Positions 40,051 to 51,043 of a stretch of DNA of 64,000 nt are shown piece after piece. Source of the stretch: an uncultured Planctomycetota bacterium. GTDB lineage: Bacteria > Planctomycetota > Planctomycetia > Isosphaerales > Isosphaeraceae. The DNA lies in assembly GCA_963845755.1 (NCBI GenBank), contig CAWJTV010000012.1, positions 138,062 through 202,061 on the forward strand. The letters are read 5' to 3'. Both the position numbers and the translations under genes were made by a program. Each line of letters opens with the position of its first letter. Position 1 is the stretch's first letter. Below the pieces are notes generated by a model that saw nothing but the letters and a program-made list of their open reading frames with translations, did not search any database and was not told the DNA's origin.

Positions 40051-43000
40051 GAGACCGCGCGCGCCCCGACCTCGGCGTGGCGGCCGGCCGGGGGCGCCGC
40101 GCAGCAGGTCGAGTTTCGCCGTCGCCTCGCGGTCGCCGGGGCATTCCTCGAGCACCGCGCGCCAGAGCCGCTCGGCCTCCTCACGGTCACCGCGCTCGGC
40201 GGCCAGCGCGGCGAGGTTGCGCCGGGTCAGATGGCCGTAGATCCCCTGGTCGAGGCTGGCGAACTGCTCGGGGCGGCGGAGGGTCAGGACCTGCGCCAGC
40301 ACCGCTCGGCGCCCTCGGCGTCGCCCGTATGCCGCTGGACCACCGCTTCGCGGAAGAGCAATTCGGCATCGGCAGGATCCAGGGCCAGTCCCGCGGCGCA
40401 GGCGGCCAGGGCCTGGTCGGGCTCGGCGAGCATCTGGTGCGCCCGCGCGATCAGCGCATAGAGCTTCCGCGTGATCGAGTCACTCGGCGCCGAGCCGGCC
40501 AGGCTGCGGCGGAGCAATTCCAGCGCCTCGCGCCAGTCCTGGCGCTCGATGGCGATGGCGCCGAGGTTGAACAGGACGAACGGGTCATCGGGCCGTTCGT
40601 CCAGCTCGTCGCGGAGGATGCGTTCATCGCGTTGGAGCTTCCGCGCCCGGAGTGCCCGGTCGGTGTACCCCGTATGCCGCACGACGAGATCGGTCCAGCG
40701 CACGGGGATCTTCGCCCGCCGCAGCGCCGGCAAAATCTGCTCGTGAACGCGATAGGTCCAGCGGATCCCCTCGTGGAGCGGGAACAGCCGGATGTGATCG
40801 ACGACGGTCTCGCCGCCGCTGCCATCTTCGCCGGGATCACACGCACAACGCACGACGTAACCGCAATCCTGATCCGACCGCAGCGAGTCGAGCAGCACCT
40901 GCAACGTCTCGCGCTCGGGCGGCTCGACCACGTCGTCGGCATCGAGCCAGAAGGCGTAATCGCCGGTCGCCCGCGCCAGGGCGGCATTGCGAGCGGCGGC
41001 GAAGTCATCAACCCAGACGAAATCGAACACCCGCGCACCAAAGGATCGAGCCACCTCGACCGTACGATCGGTGCTGCCGGTATCGACAACTACGATCTCA
41101 TCGAAGATCCCCCGCACCGACTCGAGGCATTTCGGAAGGTTCTTTTCCTCGTCTCGGACGATCATGGTCAAGCTGACTCGGGCCCGCTGTCGGTGGTCGG
41201 TTGTTCGTTCAGATACCGACTGCCCAGGAAGCGGGGCGTCTGGGGCCGAAGACCGAAAGTTGAGGGCCGAGGTTGATCCGGAATCCGGAATCGAGAATCG
41301 AGAATCCGGAATCGGGAATCCGGAATCCGGAATCGGGAATCGGGAATCCGGAATCGGGAATCCGGAATCCGGAATCCGGAATCCGGAATCCGGAATCCGG
41401 AATCCGGAATCGGGTTCGTCCAGGCCCTCAGCTCAACTCGCCGTCCCCGAGGCGCGTCCTGCCCCCACTTCCCGGCGAACCGTCGCTCATTTTCCTCCAG
41501 CAGCGCCGACGCGTCGACCCCGTTGCCGACGAACGTCCGGCTGCCGAAGTGGTGGACGAACAGATCCTTCGCCACGGCCAGCTCGAACCCGCCACGACGC
41601 GCACGCACGGCCAGGTCGTCATCATCGAACAACCCCAACCCGAACCGCTCGTCCAGCCCGCCGACGGCGTCGTAGACCGCCCGCGTCAAGAGCAGGCAGA
41701 AGCCCGACAGCTTCCCCACCGTGAACCACTGCCCGCGATGCCGATCGCGCCACCGCCGGGCGAAGGCGTGCATCTCGTCCAGGTCGCGATACGGCACACT
41801 CTCGACCCCTTGCGGCGGCGCGGCGTAATTCGACATCGGCCCGGCCAGGCCGATCCGGTTCGGAACGGGTCTCTCGACCGCACCCGGGGAAGGAAAACGG
41901 GGACTGGCTCCCGGCCCAAGATAATCGGGGCTTTCGCGCGAACGATCGGCTGAGGCCGGGTGCCTGTCCCCGTTTTCCGCGAGAGTGCCGCCCCGCATCG
42001 CGCTCGGCGCGGGTCTCCCGCTCGGCACAGGTCTCCCGACCCCATCGCTGCCCGAACCGGCGGTCTCCCGATCCTCCGTTCCCACTCGCACCGCCGTCAA
42101 CGCGATGAGCTGATCGAGCCACGCATCGGTGACGACCGCGTCATTGTTGAGCAAGACGAGGTACTCACCACGTGCGGCCTGCAAGCCCTGGTTGATGGCC
42201 CGCGGAAACCCGACGTTCCGGGCATTCGCGATGATCGTGACCGGCACGCCCGCCGCGTCCTGGACTCCGGCCAGGTAATCGCCGGTCCCATCGGTCGAGC
42301 CATTGTCGATGACGATCAACTCCCACGGCCGGCGCGTATGGCGCAACAAACCCTGGACGCACAGCCGGGTGAACTCGCGCTGGTTCCAGCAGGGGACGAT
42401 GATCGAGGCCAGGCCCCGGACCGCGGACACCTTGGGGTCCGGTGAGGGATCACGAGGATCCGCTTCCTGCCCACGTTCGAGCGTCCTCACCTTCCCAGGC
42501 GCGCACGATCCCTCGCGGAGGGCCGGCCCCACGGGCCGCGCCAGCGATCCGCTCCCCGCCTCGGCATTCCCCAGCACGAACACCTGCCCCTCGCGGTCGA
42601 ACAGCGCGCACGGGGTCGCCACCGGCAACCGACTGGCCCACTTGCGGGCGAACACCCGCGCACTGCGAACGAACGACTCGGTCAAGCCGACGTTCCGCGA
42701 GTTGTGCCGGCACGGGGCCTCCAGCGCAACGACCGCCCATCCGCGCCTCGACGGCCTGGAGGCAGAGATCGGCCCCGTAGAGATGGAACCCCAGCTCGGT
42801 GTCGAACCGGAGCGGCGAATCCCGCCGGATGATGAGCAACAGCTCGTCCAGCGTGACGACCGGCGCGGGCAGATCCGGCCCGTGGAGCAGCACGCGATCC
42901 CGATCCACGACGCGGCCGATCCTCCGCACCGCGGGCGGACCCTGGGATGATCCGGGAGCGATCACCGGGCCGACGCCGTAGACCCCGGCCACCCCGATCG

Positions 43001-44353: not shown

Positions 44354-44671
44354 ATGATGAGTCCCGAACTCATGACCACGAGAACCGGCACACCGCGACG
44401 CGAGCCGATTGGAACGGCGATGCTCCAGCAACTTGCCGACCTGGAGCCACGGAGCAGGTCCCCCGCGACCGCTCGGAAGATCCTGGAGCTGAGCTTCTCC
44501 CCAAGGCAACAAAAGCGTGCCGGCTTCCTCTCGGAGAAGGCCCAGGAGGGCTCGCTCACAGTTCCCGAGCGAGACGAGCTCGATGAGTACATCACGGTGG
44601 CCGACCTCTTGACCATCCTCCAATCCCGAGCCCGCCGGGCCCTGAAGCCCGCCAAGCGTTCGAAAGTGTAA
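44354..44671 (+). CDS. Small antitoxin-like hypothetical protein
   Basis: ARKILELSF...LSEKAQEGSLT..ERDELDEY...LQSRARRAL; its paralogue at 50470 precedes an HNH gene. Confidence 0.65.
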   Translation: MMSPELMTTRTGTPRREPIGTAMLQQLADLEPRSRSPATARKILELSFSPRQQKRAGFLSEKAQEGSLTVPERDELDEYITVADLLTILQSRARRALKPAKRSKV

Positions 44672-45360: not shown

Positions 45361-45420
45361 CGGAACCGCCATCTCGGTCCAGCCGGTTTGTTCACGGGAG
45401 GGGCAAAAGGGGACATTGCT

Positions 45421-45650
45421 GAATGCCATTAAGTTAAGCGTAAAGACAGATTCTAATTGCACTTAGGGTCGATCTCCCCGGCTCCAATCAGAAATAGTTT
45501 AGATATGTTAATTTGATTCTCAGAGCGAAAACACCCTGGATCCAAGCCGCATGGAATGATCTAGATATCAACATACTTATAAAATCGCCGAAAACATGCT
45601 CGACGCAAGCCGTTTGGAGATCAGGAGTTAAACTTAACTTAATGCCATTC
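45421..45650. mobile_element. MITE (230 bp) with IS4-like ends
   Basis: IR GAATG(C/G)CATTAAGTTAAG; 11-bp direct repeat GGGACATTGCT at 45410-45420 and 45651-45661; AT-rich, no transposase. Confidence 0.88.
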
Positions 45651-45734
45651 GGGACATTGCTAATTCCCCCCGCAGGCTGGACAATTTGGGTAAACCCATG
45701 ATCTCTTCCCTCCCCCATGAGTCTCGGTGAGCCC

Positions 45735-46277
45735 ATGCCTCGAACCGCAAGAGCTTGCTCGGCCGGATACACCTACCATGTCCTCAATCGCGGCAACGCA
45801 CGTGCCGAGGTGTTCCACAAGTCCGACGACTACGACGCGTTCGTCGAGATGATGGCCGAAGCCTCCCTCCGCACCCCGATGCGCATCCTGGCCTACTGCC
45901 TCATGCCCAATCACTTCCATCTGGCGCTCTGGCCCCGCGCCGACGGCGACCTCAGCCGCGGGATGCATTGGCTGATGACCACCCCAGTGCGCCGCTACCT
46001 GCGACACTATCACTCCAGCGGCCATGTGTGGCAAGGCCGGTTCAAGGCGTTCCCGACCGAGGAAGATGAGCGAGACTGGGTCGAGGGCGTCAACATGGCG
46101 ATGACCGAGGCCGAAGTGGAGCAGGTGCGCGAATGCGTGCGCCGCGATCGGCCGTACGGCTCGGCGGCCTGGACGACAGCGACCGCCCGGAGCCTGGGGC
46201 TGGAGTATAGTCTCCGGCCCCGCGGTCGTCCGCCAGCCACGGACCCGGCCACGCCGAACGGGAAAGGTCCCTGTTGA
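45735..46277 (+). CDS. REP-associated tyrosine transposase (RAYT/Y1), probably internally deleted
   Basis: MPRTAR, YHVLNRGN, AYCLMPNHFHL (HUH), GHVWQGRFK; the YIExNP catalytic segment is absent. Confidence 0.85.
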   Translation: MPRTARACSAGYTYHVLNRGNARAEVFHKSDDYDAFVEMMAEASLRTPMRILAYCLMPNHFHLALWPRADGDLSRGMHWLMTTPVRRYLRHYHSSGHVWQGRFKAFPTEEDERDWVEGVNMAMTEAEVEQVRECVRRDRPYGSAAWTTATARSLGLEYSLRPRGRPPATDPATPNGKGPC

Positions 46278-46547
46278 AGCTCGCTGAAAAACGGGTGTGT
46301 GTCGCATGGTTTTGCCGACCTAAGGCGGATACGGATTTCCCAGACTCTGCAGTTCAACCAGATCTCGCAATCCTCGTCAAGATTTAGGGATGTCCCCTGG
46401 TATGTGGCGAAGTGAGGTACTAAAGATTCTTGACCAGCAACAACAGGGGGGCCTGGGGGGGTCAAGGATCTTTTCTACTGAACGCCCGAGCAGACTTCCA
46501 GAATGGGAGTTGGGTCTCTTCTCAACTCGATTCGGAGGTCCTGTTCC

Positions 46548-48122
46548 ATGGCTACCAAGTCCCCGTCGAAGAACCGTCGCCCGTCGCAGCCGCATGCCCT
46601 TCATAAGCCTCGGGGGGTCATTCACCCGCGCGTCCAAGCGGTCGGACCGGAGCACTTCGGCTTGGTGTGCGTCGATTGCGCCAAGGCACGCTCCCGGATG
46701 ATGTTCGCCGACTTCTACGGCCGAGTCCTGCTCGAGCCGACCACCGTCGAACACAACCGATCCGACTTCGAGACCGCCGTGACGTCGGTTCGCGCGGCCA
46801 TGGCCCGGCACGGCATCCGGGAGGTGATCGTGGTCGTCGAGCGCACCGGTCGCTATCACGGCCCGGTCCAGCGCAGCTTCCGCAAGGCGGGGTTCGAGGT
46901 CCGCATCGTTCATCCTTACACCACCAAGCAGTATCGACTCCCCGCCGACCCCGGCAACAAGACCGACGACACCGACCTCTCCGCCATCCACCGCGCCGCC
47001 GTCAACGGCTTCGGCCTGCTGGAGCCCGAACCCGACCCGGTCTATGCCCGACTCCAACTGCTGGCCAGGCACCGCCGCACCTCGGTGCAAAAGCGAGTCG
47101 TCCTCCAACAGCAGATGCTCGAGCATCTTCAATCGTTCATGCCAGGATACTCGAAGTGCGTCGGCGATCTCTTCGGTTCTCCGGCCATCCTCTGGGTGGC
47201 CAGGGACCTCGGCTCGGCCGCGGCGATCGCCCAGATCGGCCTGGCCGGCTTGAGCCAACAGGTTCGACAGGCCGGCCTCCGAGTGTATCGGTCCACCCTG
47301 GAAAAGATCGTCGCTTGGGCCCGGTCGGCACCGTCGGCCGAGGAACCGGCGTCGCTCCATCACCGCATCTTCCTGGAGCTCGACGCCGACCAGGTCGCCA
47401 AGGCTCAAGCCATCCAGGCGGTCGAGGGTGACCTGGCCGGGCTCTTGGCCGGGACGCCCTACCTGCTCCTGCTGGGCATCGTCGGGATCAACGTGGTCTC
47501 GGCCGCCGAGTTCGCCGGCGAGATGGGGCCGATCGAGCGCTACACCAAGGCCCGAGCGATTACGGGCCGCGCCGGGTTGTTCCCCTCGCGGTACCAGAGC
47601 GACCAGGTCGATCGTCGCGACGGTGCGCTGGTCCGACACGCCAATCGCGACCTGCGATCCGCCATCCTCACGATTGCAGATAACTTGATCAAATGCAATG
47701 ATCACTTCGCGGTCCTGGCCGCGGGATGGCGGCTCAGGGGCAAGGACGCCCGTAGCGTCCGTGTCCAGGTCGCCGGTCGGTTCTGCCGGATCGCCTACCA
47801 GATGGTAGCCGGTCGGATGACCTTCCAACACCCCTGCGCTCAGCAGCGGGATCCCATCCTCGATAAACTGATCAGGTTTTCTCTTGAGCATATCATTCCA
47901 CCTGATCAGCTCTCGCGAAACCTCGACGCCGCAGTGGCCCAACTCCCGCACACGGCGCATCGTGAGGAAGCGGCCGCTGTGGCGGAGGAGCTGGCTCGGG
48001 TCCCGAAATCGCGGGGAACGGGACCGCGCCAGCTAGACACGATTCTCCCCGCCATCTTGGCCAAACTGGAGGGGAACCTGGTAAGATCACCGGAGTCAGG
48101 GGAGGCTGATCCCACAGAGTGA
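46548..48122 (+). CDS. IS110 family DEDD recombinase (524 aa)
   Basis: CVDCAK, VERTGRY, NKTDDTD, GIVGIN, AGLFPSRYQS; GGAGG RBS. Confidence 0.92.
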   Translation: MATKSPSKNRRPSQPHALHKPRGVIHPRVQAVGPEHFGLVCVDCAKARSRMMFADFYGRVLLEPTTVEHNRSDFETAVTSVRAAMARHGIREVIVVVERTGRYHGPVQRSFRKAGFEVRIVHPYTTKQYRLPADPGNKTDDTDLSAIHRAAVNGFGLLEPEPDPVYARLQLLARHRRTSVQKRVVLQQQMLEHLQSFMPGYSKCVGDLFGSPAILWVARDLGSAAAIAQIGLAGLSQQVRQAGLRVYRSTLEKIVAWARSAPSAEEPASLHHRIFLELDADQVAKAQAIQAVEGDLAGLLAGTPYLLLLGIVGINVVSAAEFAGEMGPIERYTKARAITGRAGLFPSRYQSDQVDRRDGALVRHANRDLRSAILTIADNLIKCNDHFAVLAAGWRLRGKDARSVRVQVAGRFCRIAYQMVAGRMTFQHPCAQQRDPILDKLIRFSLEHIIPPDQLSRNLDAAVAQLPHTAHREEAAAVAEELARVPKSRGTGPRQLDTILPAILAKLEGNLVRSPESGEADPTE

Positions 48123-48125
48123 CCA

Positions 48126-48301
48126 TCCGGACCAGGGGCCGAACAACGTCGAATCTGTCCCCAAGGCGCAAAGCCGTGGAAAAGCGTGGCGCTCTGTCTC
48201 GGATCACCAACGTCGGATAAGGCTGTGTGGGGTCACTCCCCTGATAAACCAGTATGGCGAGACGTGATCCCTGACGAGACAGAGGTGGCCCCTGGTCGGG
48301 A
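48126..48301 (+). ncRNA. Putative bridge/seek RNA of IS110 (second copy about 50155-50330)
   Basis: 14/15-bp closing stem (48126-48140 with 48287-48301) encloses two loops whose segments match the target and donor junctions. Confidence 0.75.
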
Positions 48302-48428
48302 TTGGCCATCAAACGACATCTGTAAAACCCGCCGGTTCGGCGGGGATAGGGATCGTCCGTACATAGGTCCCAAATCGGCATCACGCCAATTCCCACATGG
48401 CTGTCTTTTCCCTTTCAAGGGATGTCCC

Positions 48429-50435
48429 CTGGTATGTGGCGAAGTGAGGTACTAAAGATTCTTGACCAGCAACAACAGGGGGGCCTGGGGGGGTCAAGGA
48501 TCTTTCTACTGAACGCCCGAGCAGACTTCCAGAATGGGAGTTGGGTCTCTTCTCAACTCGATTCGGAGGTCCTGTTCCATGGCTACCAAGTCCCCGTCGA
48601 AGAACCGTCGCCGTCGCAGCCGCATGCCCTTCATAAGCCTCGGGGGGTCATTCACCCGCGCGTCCAAGCGGTCGGACCGGAGCACTTCGGCTTGGTGGCG
48701 TCGATTGCGCCAAGGCACGCTCCAGGATGATGCTCGCCGACTTCTACGGCCGAGTCCTGCTCGAGCCGACCACCGTCGAACACAACAGATCCGACTTCGA
48801 GACCGCCGTGACGTCGCTTCGCGAGGCCATGGCCCGGCACGGCATCCAGGACGTGATCGTGGTCGTCGAGCGCACCGGTCGCTATCACGGCCCGGTCCAG
48901 CGCAGCTTCCGCAAGGCGGGCTTCGAGGTCCGCATCGTTCATCCTTACACCACCAAGCAGTATCGACTCCCCGCCGACCCCGGCAACAAGACCGACGACA
49001 CCGATCTCTCCGCCATCCACCGCGCCGCCGTCAACGGCTTCGGCCTGCTGGAGCCCGAACCCGACCCGATCTATGCCCGACTCCAACTGCTGGCCAGGCA
49101 CCGCCGCACCTCGGTGCAAAAGCGAGTCGTCCTCCAACAGCAGATGCTCGAGCATCTTCAATCGTTCATGCCAGGATACTCGAAGTGCTTCGACGATCTC
49201 TTCGATTCTCCGGCCATCCTCTGGGTGGCCAGGGACCTCGGCTCGGCCGCGGCGATCGCCCAGATCGGCCTGGCCGGCTTGAGCCAACAGGTTCGACAGG
49301 CCGGCCTCCGAGTGTATCGGTCCACCCTGGAAAAGATCGTCGCTTGGGCCCGGTCGGCACCGTCGGCCGAGGAACCGGCGTCGCTCCATCACCGCATCTT
49401 CCTGGAGCTCGACGCCGACCAGGTCGCCAAGGCTCAAGCCATCCAGGCGGTCGAGGGTGACCTGGCCGGGCTCTTGGCCGGGACGCCCTACCTGCTCCTG
49501 CTGGGCATCGTCGGGATCAACGTGGTCTCGGCCGCCGAGTTCGCCGGCGAGATGGGGCCGATCGAGCGCTACACCAAGGCCCGAGCGATCACGGGCCGCG
49601 CCGGGTTGTTCCCCTCGCGGTACCAGAGCGACCAGGTCGATCGTCGCGACGGTGCGCTGGTCCGACACGCCAATCGCGACCTGCGATCCGCCATCCTCAC
49701 GATTGCAGATAACTTGATCAAATGCAATGATCACTTCGCGGTCCTGGCCGCGGGATGGCGGCTCAGGGGCAAGGACGCCCGTAGCGTCCGTGTCCAGGTC
49801 GCCGGTCGGTTCTGCCGGATCGCCTACCAGATGGTAGCCGGTCGGATGACCTTCCAACACCCCTGCGCTCAGCAGCGGGATCCCATCCTCGATAAACTGA
49901 TCAGGTTTTCTCTTGAGCATATCATTCCACCTGATCAGCTCTCGCGAAACCTCGACGCCGCAGTGGCCCAACTCCCGCACACGGCGCATCGTGAGGAAGC
50001 GGCCGCTGTGGCGGAGGAGCTGGCTCGGGTCCCGAAATCGCGGGGAACGGGACCGCGCCAGCTAGACACGATTCTCCCCGCCATCTTGGCCAAACTGGAG
50101 GGGAACCTGGTAAGATCACCGGAGTCAGGGGAGGCTGATCCCACAGAGTGACCATCCGGACCAGGGGCCGAACAACGTCGAATCTGTCCCCAAGGCGCAA
50201 AGCCGTGGAAAAGCGTGGCGCTCTGTCTCGGATCACCAACGTCGGATAAGGCTGTGTGGGGTCACTCCCCTGATAAACCAGTATGGCGAGACGTGATCCC
50301 TGACGAGACCGAGGTGGCCCCTGGTCGGGATTGGCCATCAAACGACATCTGTAAAACCCGCCGGTTCGGCGGGGACAGGGATCGTCCGTACATAGGTCCC
50401 AAATCGGCATCACGCCAATTCCCACATGGCTGTCT
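48429..50435 (+). mobile_element. IS110 family element, copy 2 (recombinase 5' end frameshifted; ORF 48727-50151)
   Basis: Near-identical to copy 1 with the same junctions; scattered substitutions and small deletions. Confidence 0.92.
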
Positions 50436-50446
50436 TTTCCCTTTCA

Positions 50447-50470
50447 AGGGATGTCCCCTTTTCCCTTTCA
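50447..50470 (+). repeat. Empty unit of the 24-bp target repeat AGGGATGTCCCCTTTTCCCTTTCA
   Basis: Identical to the sequence rebuilt by removing either IS110 copy. Confidence 0.85.
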
Positions 50471-50624
50471 AAACGAGCCGGCTTCCTCGGAGAAGGCCCA
50501 GGCGGGCTCGCTCACAGTTCCGGAGCGAGACGAGCTCGATGAGTACATCGCGGTGGCCGACCACTTGGCCATCCTCCGATCCCAAGCCCGCCGGGCCTTG
50601 GAGCCCGCCAAGCCTTCGTCGTGA
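50470..50624 (+). pseudogene. 3' fragment paralogous to 44354-44671
   Basis: Clear nucleotide similarity to about 44511-44665. Confidence 0.75.
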
Positions 50625-50629
50625 ATCCC

Positions 50630-51043
50630 ATGCGCATCCGCACGAACCTCGTCCGGCGAGTGAGGGCGCGAGCAAGGGGACGGCGTGAATACTGTCATCT
50701 TCCCCAGGCGCCCTACAGGCTCATCTTTCCCCTCGATCACATCCTCGCTAGCCAGCAAGGCGAAAGGACGCAGAGCGATAACCTGGGGGTCGTGTGACCG
50801 CGATTCAACCGGAACAACGGACCGAACATAGCTGGATCCGGCATCCGTAAACGTGAGATTATCAGGCTCTTTCATCCGCGTCGCGATCGGTGGGTGGATC
50901 ACTTCCTGTGGCGTGGATCGCAGTTGATCGGCTTGACCCCAATCGGCCGTGCGACCATTCGCGTCCTCGCGATCAATCACCCCGATGCGATCAAGGTCCG
51001 GAGGGAGTTGATGGCCGAAAGCCTTTTCCCGCTTGATGAATAA
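50630..51043 (+). pseudogene. HNH endonuclease pseudogene
   Basis: REYC...DHI...NL..., internal TGA 50795-50797, RLFHPRRDRWVDHF, GLTPIGRATIRVL; Zn cysteines eroded. Confidence 0.8.

Follow-up and report, generated by a model that had tools for sequence, protein, structure and literature searches.

Among the described members of the IS110 family of insertion sequences (IS), IS621 (Durrant 2024, PMC11208160; Hiraizumi 2024/2026) has a recombinase whose fold brings together DEDD and serine (Ser) residues. It recombines at a CT core, uses targets of the repetitive extragenic palindromic (REP) type, and is directed by a bridge RNA whose target loop lies 5' of the donor loop, the 5' guide of each loop being identical to the top strand and the 3' guide complementary to it. 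ISPpu10 and ISPpu9 of Pseudomonas putida (bioRxiv 10.64898/2026.03.19.712850, PMC12288879) likewise insert into REP sequences, the left target of ISPpu10 being the 3' arm of a stem-loop, and several of their modules can lie adjacent in a REP context. Finally, tandem complete IS110 modules and repeated insertion next to a resident copy were reported at scale in a 2026 preprint (bioRxiv 10.64898/2026.08.14.744561), with no target immunity. All these features have an observed or probable counterpart in the locus analysed here, carried by a 64,000-nt stretch (the window, to which all coordinates refer) of an uncultured planctomycete of the Isosphaeraceae; the window belongs to contig C12 of a 14.27-Mb, 49-contig assembly. 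It contains two copies of a 2.0-kb IS110-family element, at 46399-48406 (2008 bp, one CT counted) and 48431-50435 (2005 bp). Our preferred reading, to which we give a probability of about 60%, is that two bridge-RNA-guided insertions took place in units 1 and 2 of a pre-existing array of three 24-bp targets and left unit 3 empty.

The original prediction, made from the letters of the window, placed the two copies in consecutive 24-bp units and regarded the third unit as empty. Direct reading of the junctions and scripted excision bear this out. Both left junctions read ...AGGGATGTCCC-CT/GGTATGTGG (46386-46398/46399 and 48418-48430/48431), so written that the left half of the unit including the core is AGGGATGTCCCCT and the element starts with GGTATGTGG at 46399 and again at 48431. 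Both right junctions read ...CCACATGGCTGT-CT/TTTCCCTTTCA (48406/48407 and 50435/50436), the right terminus of the element, ...CCACATGGCTGTCT, being followed by TTTCCCTTTCA at 48407 and 50436. Removal of both copies in the script gave AGGGATGTCCCCTTTTCCCTTTCA three times, i.e. perfect 24-bp units (72 of 72 bases), and unit 3 reads AGGGATGTCCCCTTTTCCCTTTCA without interruption at 50447-50470. The bases beside the CT are C..G at the left junctions and T..T at the right ones; since the two kinds of junction differ on both sides of the CT, the shared core is exactly CT.

Comparison of copy 1 with the genome by blastn revealed two further full copies, on contigs C1 and C34 (each 99.8% identical), and three fragments, namely a left end on C47 and right ends on C29 (92%) and C18 (88%). 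The same termini were found in all four full copies and the three fragments of the assembly. To the left of the genomic copies the flanks follow (A/C)(T/C)G(T/C)(C/T)CCC-CT and to the right TTTC(C/A), also summarised as nnGTCCC-CT/TTTCn, and the CT is found at both junctions in 4/4 full copies and once in empty sites. Copies with unrelated flanks or different ends had been named in advance as what would speak against the prediction; the termini are identical and the flanks related in every case, in agreement with the core CT, the target ATGTCCC-CT-TTTCC and the donor TGGCTGT-CT-GGTAT proposed at the outset. The status of unit 3 as an intact, empty target agrees with a homologous site in a genome of the same genus (G001), where the homologue of the left flank runs uninterrupted through GATTTAGGGATGTCCCCTTTTC and which is an independent empty site. 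Rather than an array of three units, this genome has a single empty site, followed after 37 bp by a degenerate copy. More generally, the search of relatives for an empty three-unit allele, which had been suggested as a check, revealed no such allele: the left flank had no full orthologue in 26 genomes, and the right flank was represented only by a paralogous or orthologous small gene in another genome (G015), without any unit. Within the present genome, the C1 copy has an empty duplicate of its own target directly downstream (18-19 bp, two units).

The target and donor sequences read at the junctions recur inside the element. The left end measures 104 nt and has no loop-like matches, whereas the right end measures 284 nt and has a predicted fold of -119 kcal/mol (z -3.4) in which two modules resemble each other, both having a CGUCG/UGGCG closing stem and a small hairpin as cap. 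Pairs of guides straddle the loops, UGUCCCC and GGAAAAG in loop 1 and GGCUGU and ACCAG in loop 2, so placed that the predicted loops match the target TGTCCC-CT-TTTCC and the donor GGCTGT-CT-GGT, with the guide polarity described for IS621 (PMC11208160). Relatives of the element were fetched from genomes (58 loci) and metagenomes (79 loci), and their ends were set by comparing copies within a genome. The RNAalifold analysis of 22 relatives showed a scaffold kept in 22/22 and variable loops; compensatory changes were present in 9 of the 37 consensus pairs of the scaffold. The guides matched their own flanks better than those of other families in 16 of the 17 distinct target-guide sets (11.5 matched bases on the average for own flanks versus 8.9 for other families). 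For one group (L009) all four guides were altered together with the flanks and ends (TTCCTCT, CTTCTCT, CTGAAAT), and the donor position GGC[T/G/A]GT tracks the donor loop across relatives. The right end is thus predicted to specify a structured two-loop guide RNA which co-varies with target and donor, and these co-varying segments agree with the target and donor first proposed. The original prediction also invoked bridge recombination of the IS621 type; the CT core and the guide polarity are in its favour, with the refinement that the bridge RNA would lie in the right end, 3' of the gene. No Rfam family matched 46000-51000 at E up to 1, and a promoter and terminator scan of 46300-48520 gave no promoter-like and one terminator-like site, which is within shuffle expectation.

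The assignment to the IS110 family, also part of the original prediction, is supported by the recombinase. Its Pfam matches are DEDD_Tnp_IS110 (PF01548, 6.9e-20, profile positions 2-155 of 155 covered) and Transposase_20 (PF02371, 1e-10). The four acidic DEDD residues are present, E113 and KTDDTD aligning to IS621, and so is the C-terminal G--P----S motif with the catalytic Ser, followed here by D and not by G; D58, E113, D155/D156, D158, G358, P361 and S366 are invariant in 28/28 aligned relatives. Sequence similarity as measured by phmmer is weak (1.9e-5 for IS621, 4e-4 for ISCro4), and the protein is a divergent member of the family. The AlphaFold model (predicted local distance difference test score, pLDDT, of 81.8) has a fold that is IS621-like: the best solved folds returned by Foldseek were those of IS621 (8wt9_A, 2e-9) and ISCro4 (9t56_B, 2.3e-9), both at a probability of 1.00 and with target-normalised template modelling (TM) scores of 0.48-0.50. 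The next matches were Nop56/58 proteins, a ranking consistent with the published kinship of these groups. Residues 437-527 form a helical extension, confident in the model and conserved across the clade, and the extreme C-terminus bears a conserved S-G-E-x-D-x-T tail, also found across the clade; this whole region, residues 437-539, is absent from IS621. The six copies checked from two related element families (L035, L036, L037, L040, L115 and L118) have one in-frame stop each within the recombinase-aligned region, which may lie upstream of the true start.

The target itself appears to be the 3' foot of a REP-like motif found beside Y1 genes that resemble those of REP-associated tyrosine transposases (RAYT). 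Each unit contains GGG-ATGT-CCC, the left target being its 3' arm as in ISPpu10. The gene to the left of the array matches Y1_Tnp (1.5e-12), and NF047646 at 43 bits, under the cut-off of 80. Two paralogues of this gene, on C47 and C27, have AGTAATTCGTTATGTCCCCT within 12-24 nt of their 3' side; the C47 site is occupied by the IS left-end fragment, and the motif flanks both paralogues in inverted orientation. At two mismatches or less, TTCGTTATGTCCCC has 84 matches in the genome (a count made without shuffle control); many of them lie where a palindrome has its 3' foot, and short tandem units frequently follow. Tandem arrays of the REP-like motif free of any IS are present on C45 (25-27 bp, 3-4 units), C42, C36, C16 and C18; their motif is ...TTCG(T/C)TATGTCCCC followed by a T-rich tail. 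Many have A or G after CCCC, which means that the CT core is lacking there. The existence of these arrays makes a 24-bp array ordinary for the REP-like family, which supports the idea that the array was there before the IS. Long perfect palindromes were seen at the C1 site and at three sites in relatives (L013, L111 and L131), in the last three of which the element was inserted at the 3' foot, an arrangement reminiscent of ISPpu10, whose targets have a 5' stem-loop (bioRxiv 10.64898/2026.03.19.712850). A hairpin downstream of the core was considered as the reason why units 1 and 2 are filled and unit 3 is empty, and was rejected because unit 1 has no upstream partner and the C1 site no such hairpin. 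Two arrangements in relatives are worth recording. In Singulisphaera sp. GP187 (L013) a related element at 294-2247 is followed 418 bp downstream by a second one in the same orientation (from 2667), located at the 3' foot of a perfect palindrome with a 21-bp stem; elsewhere, at L082, a microsatellite of 7-bp units, (TCTGTCT)n, is interrupted by a related element (100-2201), so that units are found to its left and to its right.

The two tandem copies are not identical. The 'several substitutions' first noted between them understated the difference, which amounts to 19 changes, namely 16 substitutions and, in copy 2, three 1-bp deletions (blastn identity of 99.05% over 2008). The deletions split the recombinase frame of copy 2 into two open reading frames (ORFs), 48534-49460 and 48727-50151. 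Fourteen substitutions and the three deletions, two of which are in short homopolymers, are private to copy 2. Polarised with five outgroup elements, the private substitutions divide into roughly equal ancestral and derived halves. At ~6-7 of the 14 sites the outgroup state persists in copy 2, the derived state being common to copy 1 and the C1 and C34 copies. The mosaic distribution of the differences implies gene conversion, and the history of the copies is therefore reticulate. Ordering the copies by means of a tree was tried and abandoned, the 5' third, the right end and site 47624 giving conflicting signals.

How could such an arrangement arise? By analogy with the published mechanism of IS621, ISEc21 and ISPpu10, the element would exit as a circle with the junction GGCTGT-CT-GGTAT, after which the recombinase-RNA complex would pair its loops with the donor and with TGTCCC-CT-TTTCC and exchange strands at the CT. 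Insertion would split the target into two hybrid junctions, with no duplication beyond the CT. An array provides three identical targets, and we propose that two of them were filled at different times; copy 2 would represent an older lineage which has since lost its recombinase frame and could still supply ends and RNA. Several observations weigh against this reading. The abutted circle junction was found neither in the genome nor in the 157 fetched loci nor in the contigs of four public runs (X1-X4), a search that relied on assemblies, which rarely retain circles, so that its absence there is no evidence of absence. Over 47600-48900 the contigs of these runs cover parts of the element, none of them bridging right end, unit and left end, and X3 yielded nothing; the best run contains 0.15 of the sampled words, so none is shown to be the source. 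Although a perfect target, unit 3 is vacant, which is compatible with chance and otherwise unexplained. The changes private to copy 2 are clustered, 16 of the 17 lying at element positions 73-778; copy 1, and not copy 2, stands apart in the right end, where it has outgroup-like letters and copy 2 groups with the C1 and C34 copies; and at site 47624 both tandem copies have a derived T, unlike C1 and C34. From such a mosaic the order of events is unreadable by a tree. As to the protein, the NCBIfam model NF033542 is matched (E 2.9e-34, positions 2-339 of 343) at 118.7 bits, below its curated cut-off of 140. As to the RNA, the right-donor guide is a match of 5 bases only, and a lone 7-mer match within 284 nt is not rare by chance (GGAAAAG is also present inside the ORF, at 47300), so that the guide assignment rests on position, polarity and co-variation.

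The most serious competitor, which we consider rather unlikely, is a single insertion followed by duplication. The ancestor would have carried the IS in the first of two units, as at C1, where the element precedes the empty duplicate of its own target; an unequal exchange between sister chromatids, perhaps driven by the recombinase of the element or by the 13-bp identity, would then have joined the left target, core and left end of one chromatid to the empty left target, core and right target of the other. This would duplicate [IS + 24 bp] and give filled-filled-empty, later divergence and patch exchange accounting for the rest. The near-equal number of derived changes in the two lineages (roughly 6 versus 6-7), as expected of sister copies of equal age, and the T common to both at 47624 agree with such a duplication. 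Against it, divergence in place predicts an even spread, and 16 of the 19 differences are confined to the initial 39% of the element; copy 1 has a higher identity to the dispersed copies (99.8%) than to the copy next to it (99.05%); and a pre-existing array of at least two units is still required. Both scenarios fit the map, and we prefer sequential insertion at about 2:1. Of the sequential insertion into a repeat that had been predicted, the pre-existing array thus appears likely in view of the IS-free arrays elsewhere, and filling in sequence is one of two routes to the same map, between which the mosaic differences do not discriminate. It is very improbable, on the other hand, that the tandem is an assembly artefact in which a single IS was expanded and copy 2 is a poorly polished or strain-mixed consensus. 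All three frame-breaking changes are indeed single-base deletions, two of them in short homopolymers, the soil contigs compared with the stretch lack the private letters of copy 2 (they have the copy-1 state at 48724, 48733 and elsewhere), and spanning evidence for the tandem was not obtained from the public-run contigs. Polishing errors, however, would not recreate ancestral letters, which about half of the 14 private substitutions of copy 2 are; the 24-bp spacer and both junctions are exact; and the runs compared contain at most 0.15 of the sampled words and are not shown to be the source.

The last question concerns the origin of the empty unit. For 55 unique insertion sites (from L001-L157, C1, C12 and C34) with 50 nt available on both sides, we found downstream recurrence, within 50 nt, of the first 10 bases on the right side of the IS at 8/55 sites and of the last 11 bases on its left side at 3/55; upstream, they recur at 0 and 2 sites, respectively. 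Cross-paired controls for these four counts gave 0.2, 0.18, 0 and 0.06. Short tandem duplicates of the target are therefore mostly downstream of the element, and no single explanation covers all cases. One could imagine that the spare target is made by the element itself, through one-sided reactions which start at the right (left-donor) junction and duplicate the adjoining DNA in place, so that the downstream empty unit would be a product of the IS and not a pre-existing site. Besides the downstream bias over controls of at most 0.2, a 2026 preprint (bioRxiv 10.64898/2026.08.14.744561) describes tandem repeat units next to IS110 elements, with left-donor matches kept, and proposes duplication in place from that end. 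We nonetheless give this little credence for the present locus. Downstream of the IS there are no more than 1.46 units at C12 and 1.58 at C1, and the duplication spans the insertion point by 11 (C12) and 7 (C1) left-target bases, where an exchange at the right junction would leave two whole units; a duplication anchored on the right junction was rejected for both sites for that reason. In addition, arrays of the motif exist without IS, and upstream repeats are seen in three contigs having the left flank only (L107, L139, L142) and, on both sides, at L082 (by eye, outside the 55-site count). The broader notion that the element, or its right-junction complex, causes target duplication beside itself seems improbable to us, if slightly less so. 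Were it true, each insertion would create a fresh empty target next to it and seed in-place tandem growth of the filled-filled-empty type.

Features of the locus and of IS-free arrays elsewhere in the genome (window coordinates unless a contig is named)
Feature	Position	Strand	Remark
Left neighbour: Y1 (IS200-like / RAYT-like) transposase gene	45717..46277	+	108 bp upstream of array
Unit 1 left half: left target AGGGATGTCCC + core CT	46386..46398	+	Identical 13 bases at 48418-48430 and 50447-50459
IS copy 1, intact element	46399..48406	+	99.8% to C1 and C34 copies
Left end, 104 nt, non-coding, right-donor half GGTAT	46399..46502	+	
Subterminal inverted repeat ATGTGG	46402-46407	+	Left end
Recombinase gene, 539 aa (amino acids)	46503..48122	+	DEDD_Tnp_IS110 residues 56-214, Transposase_20 residues 322-402, conserved C-terminal extension
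Predicted bridge RNA of copy 1	48125..48303	+	Outer stem around two internal-loop modules
Target-binding loop (predicted), stem CGUCG/UGGCG	48147..48191	+	
Target 5' guide (predicted) UGUCCCC	48156-48162	+	Same as top strand of left target
Target 3' guide (predicted) GGAAAAG	48178-48184	+	Reverse complement of CTTTTCC
Donor-binding loop (predicted), stem CGUCG/UGGCG	48211..48259	+	
Donor 5' guide (predicted) GGCUGU	48221-48226	+	Same as right-end terminus
Donor 3' guide (predicted) ACCAG	48248-48252	+	Reverse complement of left-end CTGGT
Right terminus: inverted repeat CCACAT, left-donor half GGCTGT, core CT	48393..48406	+	
Spacer between copies: unit 1 right half TTTCCCTTTCA + unit 2 left half AGGGATGTCCCCT	48407..48430	+	
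IS copy 2, 2005 bp, recombinase pseudogene	48431..50435	+	Ends and right-end RNA (about 50154-50332) kept
Unit 2 right half TTTCCCTTTCA	50436..50446	+	
Unit 3, intact unoccupied target	50447..50470	+	Contains 1 of the genome's 3 exact ATGTCCCCTTTTCC sites
Right neighbour: 5'-truncated paralogue of small ORF 44354-44671	50471..50625	+	Homology begins exactly at array end
IS-free arrays, 14-27 bp units	C45 70225-70277; C42 218902-218927; C36 438443; C16 78704-78726; C18 3138-3272		

The surroundings of the array call for a few remarks. The truncated paralogue on its right starts exactly where the array ends, which puts the array at a rearrangement boundary. The paralogy takes the form of a 150-bp direct repeat (44513-44662 and 50471-50618, 91% identity), whose first copy is the 3' part of the intact small ORF 44354-44671 (no Pfam or NCBIfam match); in G015 the small gene is intact and overlapped by the gene downstream. 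Here, the end of the truncated small gene is overlapped by an ORF at 50630-51040, with an in-frame stop after 55 codons and no Pfam match for its first 55 residues, which by eye we take to be a broken HNH-type endonuclease gene. A repeat of roughly 250 bp (45406-45655) immediately precedes the Y1 gene and is also found on C5 (two), C25 (two), C11 and C43 at 85-100% identity. Further to the left, on the minus strand, a 505-aa ORF (41168-42685), presumably that of a glycosyltransferase, ends in about eight tandem heptads (F/P)RIPDS(G/R). Among the public runs, a soil contig from X1 joins the left end of the element (place 48425) to a different left flank, ...GGGAACCGA, a site absent from the present genome, and a contig of X2 contains the exact left junction of the C1 copy.

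The interest of the locus is that 4.1 kb of natural sequence display attL, attR and attB of a single bridge recombinase, the occupied and unoccupied forms of a target being side by side. Together with the about 55 related insertion sites, it constitutes a ready-made set of co-varying guide/target and guide/donor pairs. If the insertions were sequential, it is also a concrete case of repeated insertion adjoining a resident copy, i.e. of the absence of target immunity. The clade mixes traits, with an RNA 3' of the gene, the guide order of IS110 and a recombinase about 200 aa longer than that of IS621, and this makes it a candidate for relating RNA position, guide order and the extra C-terminal region.

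As to its place among known elements, the kind is known and no new kind of system is involved; the Planctomycete branch is one not yet described. We filed the element in the IS110 family without subgroup, the traits of both known groups being mixed. As in the IS1111 group (ISEc11, ISPa11, ISKpn4; PMC11187229), a short left end is combined with a long right end bearing the guide RNA, and subterminal inverted repeats surround the donor; the present repeat, ATGTGG/CCACAT, is perfect over 6 bp and imperfect beyond, against 7-17 bp in that group. In IS1111 seekRNAs the top-strand match is 5' of the bottom-strand match, whereas in the present RNA the bottom-strand match comes first, which is the order of the IS110 type (ISEc21, IS621). 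The protein has 539 aa against 330-350 aa in the IS1111 group, and the length ranges given for both groups in PMC11187229 are far below this value. It is also larger than the recombinase of IS621 (326-328 aa; PMC11208160), from which it differs by a 55-aa N-terminal extension and a conserved helical C-terminal one of roughly 100 aa, and the RNA, located 3' of the gene in the 284-nt right end, is in the left end in IS621. The locus differs from those of ISPpu10 and ISPpu9 by the phylum, by the location of the RNA and by the presence of whole elements in successive units of a short tandem array. Finally, unlike the expanded or tandem IS110 loci (10.64898/2026.08.14.744561), it has its copies separated by one rebuilt target (right target plus left target) and followed by an intact one, so that the substrate of repeated insertion is visible here.

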